DNA of 57,088 nucleotides, taken from assembly GCA_036381125.1 (NCBI GenBank), contig DASVDK010000379.1, positions 1 through 57,088 on the forward strand, given 5' to 3'. This stretch comes from Thermodesulfobacteriota bacterium. GTDB lineage: Bacteria > DASVDK01. Position 1 is the stretch's first letter, and each line of letters begins with the position of its first letter. A program made the translations under genes and the position numbers. Shown here in pieces: positions 11,646-25,741 of this stretch. Under the pieces are notes generated by a model that worked only from the letters and a program-made list of their open reading frames with translations, was not told the DNA's origin and searched no databases.

Positions 11646-12629
11646 TCACGCCCGCCTCGGGCGGCGTCGCGGGCCGAGCCCGCGCACGGCCCTGAGGACG
11701 CGGCGCGCCCGCTCCACCGCCCCCGGCCCGACCTGCGCCGCGAGGAGCACCGCGGCCCGGCGGGGCGCGAGCGGCTGCAGCGCGAGCGACCGCCTCAGGG
11801 CGGCCGCGGCGCCGGCCGCGTCGCCCCGGAACCGCAGCAGGTCGTCCGCGTGGTCCGCGTGCAGCAGGGCGAGGCGGCGGCGTCTGAGCCACGCGCGTCC
11901 GACGGCGGTCCGCGCGAGCCCCCCGCGGGCGAGCGCGCCCTCGAGCGGCGCGACCTGCCCCAGGAAGCTCCGCTCCACGTTCGTGCGCCCGAGGCTCTCC
12001 GCGTGCCACAGGTAGACGGCCGCGACCTCCGGCACGAAGGCGAAGCTGCCGCGCGCGGCGAGCCTGAGCCACAGGTCGTAGTCCTCGATGACCTCGCGCC
12101 GCTCGTCGAAGCCGCCCACGGCCTCGAGCGCGGCGCGGCGCGCCACGACGGTGGAGGTGTGGACGAAGTTGTGCCAGAAGAGGGCGCGCAGCACCCGCCC
12201 GCGCCGCGCCGCGGCCGGCACCCGGTACGCGAGCGGGTCGAACGGGATCTCGCGCCCCTCCGCGTCGACGAACGTCACGAGGGCGTGCACGAGCACGGCG
12301 GACGGCTCGGCGTCGAGGGCCGCGAGCCTCGGCGCCAGCCCGCCCGCGCGCCAGCGGTCGTCGGCGTCGAGGAAGGCGACGAGCGGCGCCCGGGCCGCGG
12401 CGATGCCCGCGTTGCGCGCGGCGCCCGGGCCGCCGTTGCCGCACCGCAGCACGCGCACCCGGGGCGAGACGGCCCCGGCGACGTCCGCCGTATCGTCCTG
12501 CGACCCGTCGTCGACGACGATCACCTCCACGTCCGCGCCGCTCTGCGCGAGCGCGCTCTCGATCGCGCCGGCGACGTGCCGCGCAGCGTTGTAGGCAGGA
12601 ATGACGACGCTCACGTTGGGGGTCGACAT
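11646..12629 (-). CDS. family 2 glycosyltransferase
   Basis: C-terminal 327 codons of ORF 11646..13733, starting at ATG 12629 (MSTPNVSVVIPAYNAARHV). Motifs: VIVVDDGSQDDT, FLDADD. Confidence 0.85.
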   Translation of the reverse strand: MSTPNVSVVIPAYNAARHVAGAIESALAQSGADVEVIVVDDGSQDDTADVAGAVSPRVRVLRCGNGGPGAARNAGIAAARAPLVAFLDADDRWRAGGLAPRLAALDAEPSAVLVHALVTFVDAEGREIPFDPLAYRVPAAARRGRVLRALFWHNFVHTSTVVARRAALEAVGGFDERREVIEDYDLWLRLAARGSFAFVPEVAAVYLWHAESLGRTNVERSFLGQVAPLEGALARGGLARTAVGRAWLRRRRLALLHADHADDLLRFRGDAAGAAAALRRSLALQPLAPRRAAVLLAAQVGPGAVERARRVLRAVRGLGPRRRPRRA

Positions 12630-12661
12630 GAGCGCTGCTGCGAGCAAGTACCGTGCCGCGC

Positions 12662-13837: not shown

Positions 13838-14014
13838 CTAGCGGCCGAGGAACGCGGCGGCGTCCACCGCCGCCATGGCCGCCTCGCGCGCCGCCTTTCG
13901 GCTCGCGCCGAGGGCCGCTCCGGCGAGCACGTACCCGACGGCGGGCACCAGCGCGAGGCGGATGACGACGTCCCAGTTGAACAGCCGCTTCATACGGCGG
14001 ACGACTCGACGCAT
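13838..14014 (-). CDS. small hypothetical membrane protein (58 aa)
   Basis: Part of ORF 13838..14047. ATG 14014 is preceded by AAGGGAGGGGGG. One hydrophobic helix (VVIRLALVPAVGYVLAGAAL). It fits tightly between operon genes. Confidence 0.45.
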   Translation of the reverse strand: MRRVVRRMKRLFNWDVVIRLALVPAVGYVLAGAALGASRKAAREAAMAAVDAAAFLGR

Positions 14015-14060
14015 CCTGCCCCCCTCCCTTGCCGGACGGGCCAGCAAGAGGCGTGCCCCA

Positions 14061-21303: not shown

Positions 21304-22734
21304 TCAGGCCGGGTGCCGGTCGAGTTCGTTCTCCTTGATCTTGTAGAGGAGCGCCTTGTAGGAGATCTGGAGGATCTCCGCGGCCTCTTTCCGGTTCCAC
21401 CGCGTCCAGTTGAGCACCTGCGAGATGACCTCCCGCTCCGCCTTGCGCGCGGCTTCCCGGCCGACGTCCTTCAGCGACACCGGCCGATCGCCGTCGGCCT
21501 CGATCGGCGTTTCGGCCGCCACGCTGGCGGCCGCCGCGACCGCCTGCGCCTCGGGCTCGATCTCGCGGCTGCGCAGGGCGAACTCCGTGTGGATGGCCGA
21601 CTCGTTGCCGAGGACCACCGCTCGCTTGATCATGTTCTCGAGCTCGCGCACGTTGCCCGGCCAGTGGTAGGTCATGAACCGCCGCATCGTCTCCTCGGTG
21701 AGCGGACGATAGGGCCGGTTGTACTGCCGCGAGTAGCGGGTCAGGAAGTGGTCCACCAGCAGCGGGATCTCGTCGCGCCGCTCGCGCAGGGGCGGCAGCG
21801 TGACGCTGACCACGTTCAGCCGGTAGTAGAGGTCCTCGCGAAAGTGCCCCTCGCGGACCGCCTTCTGGAGGTCGCGGTTGGTGGCGGCCAGCACCCGAAC
21901 GTCCACCGAGACGTCCCCCTCGCCGCCGAGGCGCGAGAACTCCCCGTCCTGGAGGACCTGCAGGAGCTTCGCCTGCAGCGCGGGGTGCATCTCGCTGATC
22001 TCGTCGAGGAAGATCGTGCCGTGGTTGGCCAGCTCGAACTTCCCCTGCTTGCGGAGGTTCGCCCCGGTGAACGCGCCCCGCTCGTAGCCGAACAGCTCGC
22101 TCTCGAGGAGCTGCTCGGGGAGCGCCGCGCAGTTGATCTTGACGAACGGCTTGTCCCGCCGGTGGGACTCCTGGAAGAGGGTCCGGGCGACCACCTCCTT
22201 CCCGGTCCCGCTCTCGCCCCGGATGAGGACGGTCACGTCCGTCTTCGCCACCTGGTCGATCATCTGACGGACGTGGTGCATCCGCTCGTTCTCGCCGAAG
22301 AGCAACTGGTAGCTCGTCTGCTCCTGGATCTGCTCCTTGAGCGAGCGGACCTCGGACGCCAGCTCGAGCCGGTCGAGGACCTTCGTGATCGTGAAGTTCA
22401 GCTCCTCCGGGTCGAACGGCTTGTTGAGGAAGTCGTTCGCCCCGAGCTTCATCGCCTTGACGATCGTCTGCGCCCGGCCGTGCGCCGACAGCATGATCAC
22501 CGACACGTCCGGCCGGACCGCCTTGATCTCCTCGAGCGTACGCAGGCCGTCCTTGCCCGGCATGAGCACGTCCAGCACGACCACGGTCGGCTTGAACGCC
22601 TGCACCTGGCGGACGGCGTCGTCTCCGTTCTGGACGCTGATGCAGTGGAACCCGTACTGGGCGAGCAGCGTCCGCAGGTAGTTGCACATGGACGGCTCGT
22701 CGTCCACGACGAGCACTCGGGTCTTCTCGGCCAA
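21304..22734 (-). CDS. sigma-54-dependent response regulator (NtrC family EBP; PrsR-like), copy 1
   Basis: ORF 21304..22950. Receiver domain (RVLVVDDE, VVLDVLMPGKDG), AAA+ domain (VLIRGESGTGKE, GAFTGA, ESELFGY, FLDEI), and a C-terminal Fis-type HTH (NRKEAAEILQISYKALLYKIKE). The start is uncertain: TTG 22734 (after AAGGGGGGG) or GTG 22749. Confidence 0.9.
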   Translation of the reverse strand: MAEKTRVLVVDDEPSMCNYLRTLLAQYGFHCISVQNGDDAVRQVQAFKPTVVVLDVLMPGKDGLRTLEEIKAVRPDVSVIMLSAHGRAQTIVKAMKLGANDFLNKPFDPEELNFTITKVLDRLELASEVRSLKEQIQEQTSYQLLFGENERMHHVRQMIDQVAKTDVTVLIRGESGTGKEVVARTLFQESHRRDKPFVKINCAALPEQLLESELFGYERGAFTGANLRKQGKFELANHGTIFLDEISEMHPALQAKLLQVLQDGEFSRLGGEGDVSVDVRVLAATNRDLQKAVREGHFREDLYYRLNVVSVTLPPLRERRDEIPLLVDHFLTRYSRQYNRPYRPLTEETMRRFMTYHWPGNVRELENMIKRAVVLGNESAIHTEFALRSREIEPEAQAVAAAASVAAETPIEADGDRPVSLKDVGREAARKAEREVISQVLNWTRWNRKEAAEILQISYKALLYKIKENELDRHPA

Positions 22735-22837
22735 TTCCCCCCCTTGCACGTGAGGCGCCGCTTGCCCGGAGGTCGCCCCGTCGAGGTGTGGTTCGCCAGC
22801 AGACCGGACAAGCGGCCTACGTTCCGCGTGACGTTGA

Positions 22838-22852
22838 GCAAGCGATGTGCCA
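22838..22852 (-). promoter_or_regulatory. candidate sigma-54 (RpoN) -24/-12 promoter
   Basis: The minus strand reads CTTGGCACATCGCTTGCTC, i.e. TGGCAC-N5-TTGC with canonical spacing, about 90-105 nt upstream of the EBP copy 1 start. Confidence 0.6.
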
Positions 22853-23056
22853 AGGGGATCTCGCCCCGCGGCGGCCGTGACGGCGCGCAAGGCAAACGCG
22901 CCCGCCCTCGTCGGATGCGGCGATTGGCCGCTTGACGCGGGGCCGAGCACGCGGTCGCGTCGATCGGGCTGTCGTGAGGATTGCCCTGCCGAGGGAAAAG
23001 ATTTGCCGCGGCAGGCAGCCGGTCGCAGAACCGGGAAGCGGTTCCGGCGTCGAGTC

Positions 23057-23072
23057 GTCAGGAGGGGGGCGG
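23057..23072. repeat. partial copy (GTCAGGAGGGGGGCGG) of the intergenic repeat
   Basis: 16-nt identity with the core of the two 36-bp repeats. It lies 73 bp upstream (plus-strand sense) of the next core. Confidence 0.7.
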
Positions 23073-23116
23073 GCCATCGGTTGCCTGATCGCCCCGCGAA
23101 GCCTTCGGCTTCGTGG

Positions 23117-23152
23117 GAATGGGGAGGTTGTCAGGAGGGGGGCGGAGCGTCG
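23117..23152. repeat. 36-bp direct repeat, copy A (GAATGGGGAGGTTGTCAGGAGGGGGGCGGAGCGTCG)
   Basis: Identical to 23219..23254, 102 bp away. Non-coding region between the two EBP genes. Confidence 0.9.
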
Positions 23153-23218
23153 GCCACGGAGACACCGGCGGCGCCTCTGGAGCGAAGGCCGGACTTGCTC
23201 CGGCCGGAGCGATTGAGA

Positions 23219-23254
23219 GAATGGGGAGGTTGTCAGGAGGGGGGCGGAGCGTCG
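23219..23254. repeat. 36-bp direct repeat, copy B
   Basis: Perfect copy of 23117..23152. Confidence 0.9.
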
Positions 23255-23285
23255 ATGAGAGACAGCGCGGAGTCCCCCTCCTGAC
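23232..23285 (-). terminator. 12-bp GC-rich inverted repeat directly after the EBP copy 2 stop (hairpin, possible terminator or insulator)
   Basis: GTCAGGAGGGGG (23232-23243) pairs with CCCCCTCCTGAC (23274-23285) across a 30-nt loop. It starts 3 nt after the TAG at 23288-23290. There is no clear U-tract. Confidence 0.3.
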
Positions 23286-23287
23286 TC

Positions 23288-24757
23288 CTATCGCCCGCCG
23301 TTCACGATCCCGCTTTCCTTGATCTTGTAGAGGAGCGCCTTGTAGGAGATGTTCAGGATCTTGGCGGCCTTCTTCCGGTTCCAGTTGGTCTGGTTGAGGA
23401 CGCGCTGGATGATCTCCTTCTCGGCCTCGAGCGCCGCCTTCTTCGTGATCTCCTTGAGCGAGATCGCCTGCGGTCCGGCGGGGCGCCCCTGGCCGTCGAC
23501 CGCCACGCCGACCGCCGGGACCGGGGCCGCCGGCACGGGAGCGCCGGCGCTCGCCGAGGCGGCGGCCGCCGCCTGACGCGCCGCGTTGATCGAGGCGTTC
23601 AGCTCGGCCACGACGGACGCCTGGTCCTCGAGGACGACGATGCGCTTGATCATGTTCTCGAGCTCGCGCACGTTGCCGGGCCACTCGTGCGTCATGAAGA
23701 GGCCCATGAGGTTCTCGGGCACCTGCGCGATGTTCTTGTTGAACTTCTTGTTGTACTTCTCGAGGAAGTACTCGCAGAGGATCGGGATCTCCTCCTTGCG
23801 CTCGCGCAGCGCCGGGACGTAGATGCTGACGACGTTGAGCCGATAGTACAGGTCCTCGCGGAACCGCCCCTCCTTCACCATCAGCTCGAGGTCCTTGTTC
23901 GTCGCCGCGACGACCCGCACGTCGACCTGGATGTCGCGCTTGCCGCCGAGCCGCGAGAACTCCCCGTCCTGGAGGACCTGCAGGAGCTTCGCCTGGAGCG
24001 GCGGCGACATCTCGGCGATCTCGTCGAGGAAGATGGTCCCCTCGTTGGCCAGCTCGAACTTGCCCGGCTTCTGCTTGAAGGCGCCGGTGAAGGCCCCCTT
24101 CTCGAAGCCGAACAGCTCGCTCTCGAGCAGCTCCTCCGGCAGCGCGGCGCAGTTCACCTTGATGAACGGCTTTTTCGCGCGGAGCGAGTTGAAGTGGATC
24201 GACCGGGAGACGATCTCCTTGCCGACGCCGCTCTCGCCGCGGATGAGGACGGTCACGTCGGTCGGCGCGACCTGCTCGATGATGTCCTTGACCTTGTTCA
24301 TCTTGTCGGAGACGGAGAGGAAGTACCCCTCCTTCCGCTTGACGTCGAGCTGGGTCTTGAGGCTCTTCAGCTCCTGGACGAGCTTGTTCTTCTCGAGGAC
24401 GGAGTTCATGGCGAAGTCCAGCTCCTCCTCCTCGAACGGCTTGGTGAGGTAGTCGGAGGCGCCGAGCTTCATGGCCTTGACGATGGTGCCGGTCTCTCCC
24501 ACCCCGGTCAGCATGATGACCGGGGTCTGCCGCGCGATCTTCCGGATGCGGCCGAGCACCTCGAGCCCGTCCATCTTCGGGAGCATGATGTCGAGGATGA
24601 TCAGCGAGAAGGTCGCCCCCTCCGAGAGGCGCTGCAGCGCCTCCTCACCGTCCTGGGCAAGGACGACGTCGAATCCCTTGAGCGTGAGGAGCGACTTCAG
24701 GTACTGGCGGATGTTCTCTTCGTCGTCCACCACGAGGATGGGCGGCAGGCGAGTCAT
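23288..24757 (-). CDS. sigma-54-dependent response regulator (NtrC family EBP), copy 2
   Basis: ORF 23288..24844. ATG 24757 is preceded by GGGAGGGAAGG. MTRLPPILVVDDE, LIILDIMLPKMDG, VLIRGESGVGKE, GAFTGA, and the C-terminal HTH NRKKAAKILNISYKALLYKIKE. By eye it looks roughly two-thirds identical to copy 1 (not computed). Confidence 0.9.
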   Translation of the reverse strand: MTRLPPILVVDDEENIRQYLKSLLTLKGFDVVLAQDGEEALQRLSEGATFSLIILDIMLPKMDGLEVLGRIRKIARQTPVIMLTGVGETGTIVKAMKLGASDYLTKPFEEEELDFAMNSVLEKNKLVQELKSLKTQLDVKRKEGYFLSVSDKMNKVKDIIEQVAPTDVTVLIRGESGVGKEIVSRSIHFNSLRAKKPFIKVNCAALPEELLESELFGFEKGAFTGAFKQKPGKFELANEGTIFLDEIAEMSPPLQAKLLQVLQDGEFSRLGGKRDIQVDVRVVAATNKDLELMVKEGRFREDLYYRLNVVSIYVPALRERKEEIPILCEYFLEKYNKKFNKNIAQVPENLMGLFMTHEWPGNVRELENMIKRIVVLEDQASVVAELNASINAARQAAAAASASAGAPVPAAPVPAVGVAVDGQGRPAGPQAISLKEITKKAALEAEKEIIQRVLNQTNWNRKKAAKILNISYKALLYKIKESGIVNGGR

Positions 24758-24788
24758 GTGCGGCCTTCCCTCCCAGGAATCGGGGGAG

Positions 24789-24817
24789 AGAGTATCAGAT
24801 TTCCCCGGGGGGGACAA
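24789..24817 (-). promoter_or_regulatory. weak sigma-70-like promoter candidate for EBP copy 2
   Basis: The minus strand reads TTGTCC, a 17-nt spacer, then TACTCT, about 30 nt upstream of ATG 24757. Based on the motif match only. Confidence 0.25.
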
Positions 24818-24918
24818 GCTGGCCCGAAACGGGAGGGTAATCACTTTCCTCTCCTCGGCCCAGGATCAGGCCATGCGACCCGAATCAGCCTCGGGAGAGG
24901 AAGCGGGTGGGCGTGCGA

Positions 24919-25233
24919 TTACTCTTCGTCGGCGTCGCCGGCCCCGTCGGGGGCCTTACCGTCGTTCACGCGCTCCTTCAGCTCCTTGCCGACCTTGAAG
25001 AAGGGGATCGTCTTCGCCTTGACCTCGATGGCCGCGCCGGTCTTGGGGTTGCGGCCGACGTACGGCTCGTAGCGCTTGTTGACGAACGACCCGAACCCCC
25101 GGATCTCGATGCGCCGGTTCCTGACGAGGGCCTCCGTCATCGCGTCGAAGATGGCGTTGACGACCTCCTCCGCCTTGTTGAGCGGAAGCTCCGCCCGGGC
25201 CGCGAGCACCTCCACAAGCTCCGACTTGTTCAT
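24919..25233 (-). CDS. ihfB: integration host factor beta subunit-like (HU/IHF family)
   Basis: ORF 24919..25233. MNKSELVEVLA, RIEIRGFGSF, GRNPKTG and FKVGKELKERVN closely follow the IHF-beta pattern. Confidence 0.85.
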   Translation of the reverse strand: MNKSELVEVLAARAELPLNKAEEVVNAIFDAMTEALVRNRRIEIRGFGSFVNKRYEPYVGRNPKTGAAIEVKAKTIPFFKVGKELKERVNDGKAPDGAGDADEE

Positions 25234-25283
25234 GTAGGCCCCCGAGCGAGAGCGCCCTTGTGGGCGCGGACCGATCCCTAATG

Positions 25284-25312
25284 TTCTTAAGGGTTTACGC
25301 CGACCGTGTCAA
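25284..25312 (-). promoter_or_regulatory. sigma-70-like promoter candidate for ihfB
   Basis: The minus strand reads TTGACA (25312-25307), a 17-nt spacer, then TAAGAA (25289-25284), in a locally AT-richer patch 50 nt upstream of the ATG. Confidence 0.35.
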
Positions 25313-25741
25313 GCGGTTTTCTGGCGGGACGGAAAGGAGCCACCTCGCGAGCGCCGGGCGGACGCGAACCGGCACGTCCGGCGTGCGCGCGAAGCGGAAC
25401 TCCGCCACGGCGAGCGGGCCGACCCCGCGGATGGTCGGCGGCACCACGTCGTCCCAGGGCACGAGGAGCGGCGGGTGCGCCACGGCGACGAGCCTGACGA
25501 CCGCGAGGCGTATCCCCTCGGGACCGGAGCCGGCCACCAGGCACCTCCCGTAATTCGCCAGCCCCCCGAGGCTCAGGCGCTGGAAGCGCCGCACCGTGCC
25601 CGAGAACGGCCGGTCGCCCTGGGCGTAGTGCTCGGCCATCCGTTGCCAGCCTCCCGCCCCGGCCAGGAGCCAGCAGGTCCCGAGCCAGGCGGGCACGAAG
25701 AGCACGGCGAGGACGAGGGCGTCGAGGAGCATGCCGGTCAT
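25295..25741 (-). CDS. hypothetical membrane protein
   Basis: ORF 25295..25795. ATG 25741 gives MTGMLLDALVLAVLFVPAWLGTCWLLAG (TM helix). No recognisable family. Confidence 0.5.
   Translation of the reverse strand: MTGMLLDALVLAVLFVPAWLGTCWLLAGAGGWQRMAEHYAQGDRPFSGTVRRFQRLSLGGLANYGRCLVAGSGPEGIRLAVVRLVAVAHPPLLVPWDDVVPPTIRGVGPLAVAEFRFARTPDVPVRVRPALARWLLSVPPENRLTRSA

Follow-up and report, generated by a model that had tools for sequence, protein, structure and literature searches.

A predicted sigma-54 promoter before the NtrC-type activator gene that leads a polysaccharide locus

Introduction

Where does transcription of a polysaccharide locus begin when the gene at its head encodes the kind of protein that opens sigma-54 promoters? 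This question is raised by the window analysed here, a contiguous stretch of 57,088 nucleotides (73% G+C) from an uncultured Thermodesulfobacteriota bacterium, in which an array of export and biosynthesis genes follows two paralogous NtrC-type activator genes, designated EBP1 and EBP2. Activator genes that are themselves dependent on sigma-54 include glnAp2-ntrBC of enteric bacteria and members of the developmental enhancer-binding protein cascades of M. xanthus, and a -24/-12 promoter placed before an activator gene gives either positive feedback or an activator relay. The target in the window differs from those systems, being polysaccharide export and synthesis. Sigma-54 control of exopolysaccharide loci and of PEP-CTERM genes is itself established (PMC1569441, PMC3162934, PMC4641369).

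An earlier note, made from the letters of the window, had proposed a sigma-54 promoter directly upstream of EBP2 and suggested that it may be the entry point for the whole operon. The proposal was followed up here by motif statistics, comparison with related loci and family searches. Given the G+C content, genes were called from third-position G+C rather than from lists of open reading frames. The core reading, a sigma-54 promoter before an activator gene that heads a polysaccharide locus, is supported by the sequence comparisons described below.

Results

The P1 motif and its position

Read from 22860 to 22830, the minus strand is GATCCCCTTGGCACATCGCTTGCTCAACGTC and contains, from 22852 to 22838, the element TGGCACATCGCTTGC, here termed P1.

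22837-22852, minus strand: P1, predicted sigma-54 promoter (exact consensus, top weight-matrix match, conserved in L321, L322, L323 and L324)

P1 consists of a -24 element TGGCAC (22852-22847), a 5-nt spacer and a -12 element TTGCT (22841-22837), with a GG to GC distance of 10 nt, which is the canonical -24 GG/-12 GC geometry. The sequence TGGCACATCGCTTGCT at 22852-22837 matches TGGCAC-N5-TTGCW at all 11 of the 11 specified positions, and the predicted transcription start lies at approximately 22826, some 12 nt beyond the GC. Strand, spacer and both elements (TTGC at 22841-22838) are as the earlier note had read them.

The exact motif TGGCAC-N5-TTGC is present once in the 114 kb given by both strands of the window, compared with 0.04 copies expected, and it occurred somewhere in 4 of 100 dinucleotide-preserving shuffles. 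Allowing up to one mismatch gave 4 matches in the window where 1.6 were expected. The scan with an RpoN weight matrix that the earlier note had suggested was performed with an approximate matrix based on the published consensus, the bit scores of which are indicative only; it returned P1 as the best match in the window at 19.6 bits, the maximum of the matrix, and sites of at least 17 bits arose at 0.08 per shuffled window. The by-eye survey in the earlier note was right for the copies that it listed, and none of the nine remaining TGGCAC copies in the window has a TTGC partner, but it had missed two near-consensus sites, at 12658 and 14058, that carry C/G in place of the first T. By itself, the P1 motif is only moderately improbable.

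P1 sits in a 540-nt gap (22750-23287) that shows no coding signal in a third-position GC frame plot. It lies on the sense strand for EBP2. The TTG start codon at 22734 is 118 nt away from its first base, and its 3' end is 89-104 nt short of the candidate starts (GTG 22749 and TTG 22734), in agreement with the approximately 90-105 nt previously estimated. A chance match is much less likely when it must fall in a non-coding gap, on the sense strand and at this distance from the candidate starts. The case for P1 is therefore carried by position and conservation rather than by the motif alone.

Other signals in the same region were few. A consensus scan, nearly blind at 73% G+C, found no sigma-70-like element in the P1 gap, and a scan for terminators, uninformative at the same G+C content, returned no convincing candidate after EBP1. 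No Rfam family matched within 22600-25400.

P1 is conserved among close relatives

Scans of genome and metagenome contigs seeded with the EBP2 protein returned relatives that were only 51-62% identical, and scans seeded with EBP1 likewise gave nothing above approximately 60% identity. The protein database held closer EBP2 homologs, at 96% and at 79-83% identity. The upstream alignment consists of the window and four loci, L321, L322, L323 and L324, whose EBP2 proteins are 81-83% identical to that of the window; it does not include the 96% homolog. L322 is the same contig as L328.

All four relatives keep P1, as CTTGGCACAT[C/G]G[C/A]TTGCT, and the remainder of their upstream DNA is unalignable with the window. 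Among the columns of the alignment present in all five sequences, 82 of 287 (29%) are invariant. Within the P1 block this rises to 17 of 22, and it is the sole stretch of 20 columns with at least 12 invariant. In the 10.6-kb contig L328, nothing but the P1 ortholog scores above 12 bits on the two strands. Across the five sequences, promoter and start codon are separated by 118 to 187 nt. When the upstream region of the more distant L014 was aligned with that of the window, the P1 block was shared, and otherwise only scattered single-base matches were seen.

A conserved dyad upstream of P1

A second conserved element lies further upstream within the same gap.

22994-23007, no strand assigned: 14-bp dyad GGCAAATCTTTTCC, candidate enhancer (upstream activator site), conserved in five sequences
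22980-22986, minus strand: GGGCAAT, possible extra half-site, weak, 7 nt further downstream than the dyad and replaced by GGAAG in the relatives

The dyad is centred approximately 174 nt upstream of the predicted start and is embedded in a larger imperfect palindrome (23015-22985). In the window and the four relatives, respectively, its general form, RGNAAA-NN-TTTNCC, begins 155, 162, 162, 164 and 163 nt before TGGCAC, with intervening DNA that is unalignable across the five. The pattern is unique in the window, where 0.27 matches were expected at up to one mismatch. Activator sites of sigma-54 promoters, looked for roughly 80-200 nt upstream, classically take this form, a conserved dyad held at constant spacing from a -24/-12 element. 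Across these five related sequences, on which its role rests, the 14-bp dyad is likely to be an enhancer for P1. It corresponds, with one change, to the type GGAA-N6-TTCC that is carried upstream of distant orthologs; the window itself has no exact GGAA-N6-TTCC, and matches with one mismatch are not enriched there. The IHF consensus WATCAR-N4-TTR was absent from the window.

The same gap contains 36-nt direct repeats, 100% identical, at 23117-23152 and 23219-23254, with the core GTCAGGAGGGGGGCGG. A third copy at 23044-23079 is 64% identical, and all three direct copies lie between EBP1 and P1. An inverted 12-nt copy is found at 23274-23285, and the first inverted pair could form a hairpin directly after the EBP1 stop codon. 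No further copies occur elsewhere in the window. The repeats were considered as enhancer sites and set aside, being absent from all relatives; missing there and unique to this gap, they look like a lineage-specific insertion.

The predicted leader and the start of EBP2

Transcription from P1 would produce a leader that ends at the EBP2 start codon.

22735-22826, minus strand: predicted leader, 92 nt, from the P1 start to the TTG of EBP2
21304-22734, minus strand: EBP2, NtrC-type response regulator of 476 aa with a TTG start (Pfam domains), predicted first gene transcribed from P1

TTG 22734 is likely to be the EBP2 start because it comes after a G-rich run (22743-22737) that can act as a ribosome-binding site, lines up with the start codon used by the relatives (ATG in 6 of 7) and gives a protein of 476 aa, which fits homologs called at 473-478 aa. 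A block of the form GCCGCTT-N3-CCGG-N3-4-CTGGCG at approximately 22817-22793, or about +10 to +35, is conserved in all five clade members. The folded leader was no more stable than its shuffles (z = 0.35), and the consensus fold of the five leaders had an unfavourable covariation term, leaving no supported RNA structure.

Two paralogous activators and an IHF/HU-like gene

Two further genes adjoin the P1 gap on its upstream side.

23288-24757, minus strand: EBP1, NtrC-type sigma-54 activator, paralog of EBP2 adjoining upstream
24919-25233, minus strand: IHF/HU-family DNA-bending protein gene (NCBIfam IHF-beta, 111 bits against a cut-off of 115)

EBP2 matches the Pfam families Response_reg, Sigma54_activat, AAA_lid_14 and HTH_8, which bears out its description in the earlier note as an NtrC-type enhancer-binding protein; GAFTGA is located at residue 225 and GESGTGKE at residue 178, numbered from GTG 22749. 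The best NCBIfam matches of EBP2, to AtoC, NtrC and PrsR, are all below cut-off. The upstream neighbour is indeed a paralog, as had been supposed, with EBP1 and EBP2 being 53% identical. Both have a receiver, a sigma-54 interaction domain with GAFTGA, a Walker A motif and a Fis-type helix-turn-helix. Because both proteins carry GAFTGA and Walker A, we infer that sigma-54 must be present in the genome; rpoN was not among the annotated open reading frames of the window, in which a few short frames are unannotated. EBP1 and EBP2 have exactly the same recognition helix, ISYKALLYKIKE, which is nearly invariant among EBP2 orthologs, and consequently the dyad cannot be assigned by sequence to one or the other paralog. 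The tandem arrangement of EBP1 and EBP2 recurs in L323, L014 and L161. No histidine kinase gene adjoins either activator gene, and no two-component kinase was found among the annotated open reading frames of the window.

The gap upstream of EBP1 (24758-24918) contains no sigma-54 motif according to the weight matrix. It shares conserved blocks with L323, comprising a dyad (GGAAAGTGATTACC at 24849-24836), CTTGT and GGAAATCTGATACTCT, with a -10-like GATACT among the conserved sequences. These blocks look like an operator combined with a sigma-70-type promoter. A Bac_DNA_binding gene occupies the position equivalent to that of the IHF/HU-like gene in L323 (574-876), an 81% relative, and an exact look-up of the IHF-like protein found no exact match. 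The IHF/HU-like protein may be an architectural helper for DNA looping.

The two paralogs differ in composition. The EBP1 region (23000-25000) has a G+C fraction of 0.64-0.67, compared with a window average of 0.73, and EBP1 is lysine-rich where EBP2 is arginine-rich, a contrast that may point to different evolutionary histories.

Sigma-54 motifs and a composite element at distant orthologous loci

The order of EBP2 followed by an exporter gene, usually then with a chain-length determinant and an ATPase, is kept in 89 of the 160 loci first fetched. The 77 distant loci with enough upstream DNA were scanned for sigma-54 matches of at least 14 bits in the interval from -250 to -11. On the sense strand 14 matches were found upstream of EBP2 orthologs, at -56 to -149, whereas the antisense strand gave 1 and the gene interior 0. 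A sigma-54 promoter before this regulator gene is recurrent, yet present in only about one-fifth of the wider family, and the arrangement is therefore specific to certain clades. Loci from other phyla with the motif in the equivalent gap, in a tandem-activator or activator-exporter arrangement, include L161 (TGGCATTGATATTGCT) and L162 (GGGCACACCTTTTGCT).

Most of the distant loci have, in place of the sigma-54 motif or together with it, a composite element of approximately 60 nt, GGAA-N6-TTCC(Y)A ... CTTCCCA-N5-GGAA-N5-TTACACACT, which was found in at least 42 loci, 120-280 nt before the regulator gene (for example L133, L004, L016 and L096). Its GGAA-N6-TTCC part occurred in 55 of the 76 upstream regions, and 0 of the 75 coding controls contained it. 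In loci that also have a sigma-54 motif, this motif comes approximately 55-60 nt after the composite element, as read by eye from the sequences. A profile built from the distant relatives found no composite element in the window. Judged from its sequence, the element may consist of tandem activator sites or, alternatively, of a sigma-70-type promoter (TTCCCA ... TACACT) on which operators are superimposed. It recalls the TTTACA-ending motif 1 upstream of PEP-CTERM genes, which is separated by a spacer of about 63 nt from a sigma-54 motif (PMC1569441).

The polysaccharide array and two internal candidate promoters

According to the frame plots, only the minus strand is coding between 22750 and position 1, and the genes upstream of 25.3 kb are unrelated housekeeping genes.

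449-21271, minus strand: polysaccharide array of the Wzx/Wzy type (family matches, frame plots, junctions)

The array begins with genes for a Wza-like exporter, an outer-membrane protein, a chain-length determinant, an ATPase, a tyrosine autokinase and a priming sugar transferase. These are followed by a small open reading frame, glycosyltransferases, glycerophosphotransferases, a nucleotidyltransferase and an acetyltransferase, and further on by genes for a Wzy-like polymerase, a Wzx-like flippase and a 684-aa protein of unknown type. Junctions range from a 32-nt overlap to a gap of approximately 104 nt, with many 4-nt overlaps, so the co-directional and tight packing over about 22 kb described in the earlier note was borne out (junctions of -32 to approximately 104 nt). 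This packing makes it plausible that P1 is the entry point for the whole operon.

The 684-aa protein, encoded by the last array gene that is complete (449-2503), has no Pfam or NCBIfam match. The small open reading frame (13838-14014), located between the priming transferase and the first glycosyltransferase, encodes 58 aa behind a strong ribosome-binding site and had no family match. It is kept in L241 and absent from L328, where the locus diverges.

The weight matrix also identified two sites within array gaps.

14043-14058, minus strand: P2, candidate internal sigma-54 promoter GGGCACGCCTCTTGCT, 14.5 bits
12643-12658, minus strand: P3, candidate internal sigma-54 promoter CGGCACGGTACTTGCT, 15.3 bits

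P2 lies 2 nt after the stop codon of the priming transferase, and its 3' end is 29 nt before the ATG (14014) of the small open reading frame. P3 lies 3 nt after a glycosyltransferase stop codon, with the next ATG at 12629, such that the leader would be approximately 3 nt. Both were compared with L241, the best whole-locus relative (92-93% identical over 7.4 kb), which was found via a scan with the priming transferase. P2 is 100% identical there, with 5 substitutions in the adjoining 20 non-coding nt, and P3 differs at one spacer base only. By our estimate, two such matches in array gaps are unlikely by chance, and it is plausible from the sequence that P2 and P3 are sigma-54 promoters. The 14-bp dyad was not found near P2 or P3, and P1, P2 and P3 have no upstream motif in common. 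The presence of P2 and P3 in internal gaps weakens the claim that P1 is the entry point for the whole operon, and P1 is probably not the sole entry point to the array.

Comparison with known systems

The closest described system is PrsK/PrsR, which the window locus resembles in how it would work, but to which it would not be assigned by score, neighbouring kinase or upstream motif. The two are alike in that an activator motif lies ahead of a -24/-12 sigma-54 motif at PrsK/PrsR targets (PMC1569441), as is predicted for P1, and the PrsR model (TIGR02915) matches EBP2 over its full length. The scores, however, are below the PrsR cut-off of 502.6 for both EBP2 (422.4) and EBP1 (394.6), and AtoC and NtrC score as well or better. 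PrsR is accompanied by an adjacent PrsK histidine kinase, whereas the activators of the window have no adjacent kinase. The PrsR motif, as described in PMC1569441, is 17 nt in length, ends in TTTACA and lies approximately 63 nt upstream of the sigma-54 motif. The window instead has a 14-bp dyad, separated by approximately 141 nt from its sigma-54 motif (155 nt from first base to first base), and the P1 gap contains no TTACA/TTTACA box. Furthermore, P1 precedes the regulator gene itself, whereas the PrsR system involves a single-gene PEP-CTERM operon.

Of the XrtA/PEP-CTERM models, TIGR03007 (307.7 against 278.85) and TIGR03013 (501.7 against 393.35) matched above cut-off, and TIGR03015, TIGR03027, TIGR03018, TIGR03016 and TIGR03097 matched below it. 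No exosortase (EpsH/XrtA) or PEP-CTERM protein was found in 449-25233, the array running off the left end of the window.

In the eps locus of M. xanthus, the NtrC-like regulator EpsI/Nla24 is required for expression of the locus (PMC4877007, PMC7484181). EpsI/Nla24 and EBP2 have in common that each is a receiver, AAA+ and helix-turn-helix regulator encoded inside a Wzx/Wzy-type locus. The window differs in having two paralogous activators in tandem at the head of the locus, and the M. xanthus EpsY, EpsZ, EpsD, EpsC and EpsU models match its genes only far below their cut-offs, for which reason the two loci are not considered orthologous. In D. vulgaris, the paralogous sigma-54 activators DVUA0057 and DVU0110 share one binding motif and control exopolysaccharide/biofilm operons through sigma-54 promoters (PMC4641369). 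That system differs in organism and in binding motif, its regulator genes are not adjacent, and binding was measured there, whereas it is predicted for the dyad of the window.

Discussion

Taken together, position and conservation make it likely that P1 is a working sigma-54 (RpoN) promoter for EBP2 and at least the export genes behind it. From the sequence we infer its sigma-54 dependence, its start site, the protein that binds the dyad and the reach of the transcript. In the proposed mechanism, sigma-54 RNA polymerase would bind TGGCAC-N5-TTGC as a closed complex, and an NtrC-type activator with a phosphorylated receiver would assemble on the 14-bp dyad approximately 150 nt further upstream. 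The GAFTGA loop of the activator would reach sigma-54 through DNA looping, perhaps aided by the IHF/HU-like protein, and ATP hydrolysis would then open P1 and allow transcription from approximately 22826. The activator could be EBP2, giving positive feedback, EBP1, giving a two-step cascade, or both.

How far transcription from P1 extends is less certain. It may serve EBP2 and the first block of genes only, with P2 and P3 feeding the remainder as several units of one regulon, a division of the array to which we give slightly less than an even chance. The three best weight-matrix matches in the 114 kb are all on the minus strand and in gaps of the array; matches as strong as P2 and P3 are expected approximately 0.6 times per window, and the short gaps make up about 0.4% of the search space. 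Retention of both sites in L241 amid varying non-coding bases points in the same direction, though this is a comparison with one close relative, since the locus in L328 diverges right after the priming transferase and offers no comparison for P2. The very short leader of P3, the lack of the dyad near either site and the many 4-nt overlaps, which are typical of co-transcription, speak against such a division.

A second question is which paralog acts at P1. EBP1, expressed from its own sigma-70-type promoter, could activate P1 and leave EBP2 to act on other targets, a cascade that we hold only tentatively. It would fit the recurrence in L323, L014 and L161 of EBP1, a gap with a sigma-54 motif, and EBP2 in that order, and the conserved dyad-like block and -10-like element, without a sigma-54 motif, upstream of EBP1. 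It is also consistent with the lack, in the window and L014, of the composite element, which is seen before the EBP2 gene where no EBP1 adjoins. Against this, the identical recognition helices give sequence no means of separating the paralogs, and in the majority of distant loci where the sigma-54 motif is found, EBP1 is not next to EBP2, which favours self-activation or a remote activator there. Self-activation and the cascade may both hold.

Two readings would deny P1 a role as a promoter altogether. The conserved block might bind sigma-54 holoenzyme or another protein silently, with EBP2 owing its expression to transcription that continues out of EBP1 or to a sigma-70 promoter that escaped recognition. 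The near-blindness of sigma-70 scans at this G+C content and the absence of a convincing terminator behind EBP1 leave some room for such an arrangement. A productive promoter, however, accounts for how the block is oriented and spaced from the start codon, for the dyad kept at a constant distance and for the presence of activators, and silent binding is very unlikely. That P1 is a chance match to the consensus, of the kind seen in a few shuffled windows, is hardly credible and effectively refuted, since the block is conserved in four relatives whose flanks have diverged beyond alignment and sense-strand matches are enriched in distant orthologous loci.

With P1 taken as a working sigma-54 promoter, a broader and more speculative reading, which we regard as rather unlikely, is that EBP1, EBP2 and the IHF/HU-like gene form a self-contained two-tier switch, in which one kind of dyad is read by both paralogs. 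Were this so, a GGAAAA-NN-TTTTCC-like dyad would be read both at the sigma-70-type promoter of EBP1 and at the sigma-54 promoter of EBP2, and polysaccharide production would be entered by a feed-forward commitment that might be bistable. The dyad family, which in its 60-nt composite form stands before the orthologous regulator gene in dozens of uncultured Myxococcota-like genomes, would then represent a widespread, undescribed regulon distinct from PrsK/PrsR.

To a specialist, P1 is unsurprising, being an ordinary example of the known regulation of such loci. Its value lies in being a clean, conserved example and a seed motif for regulon prediction. For this uncultured and very GC-rich lineage, it offers a concrete regulatory entry point, consisting of a predicted promoter, a candidate enhancer and two candidate activators, and it would extend the link between sigma-54 and surface polysaccharides to a clade in which the sigma-54 promoter is placed on the regulator gene and not on the structural genes.
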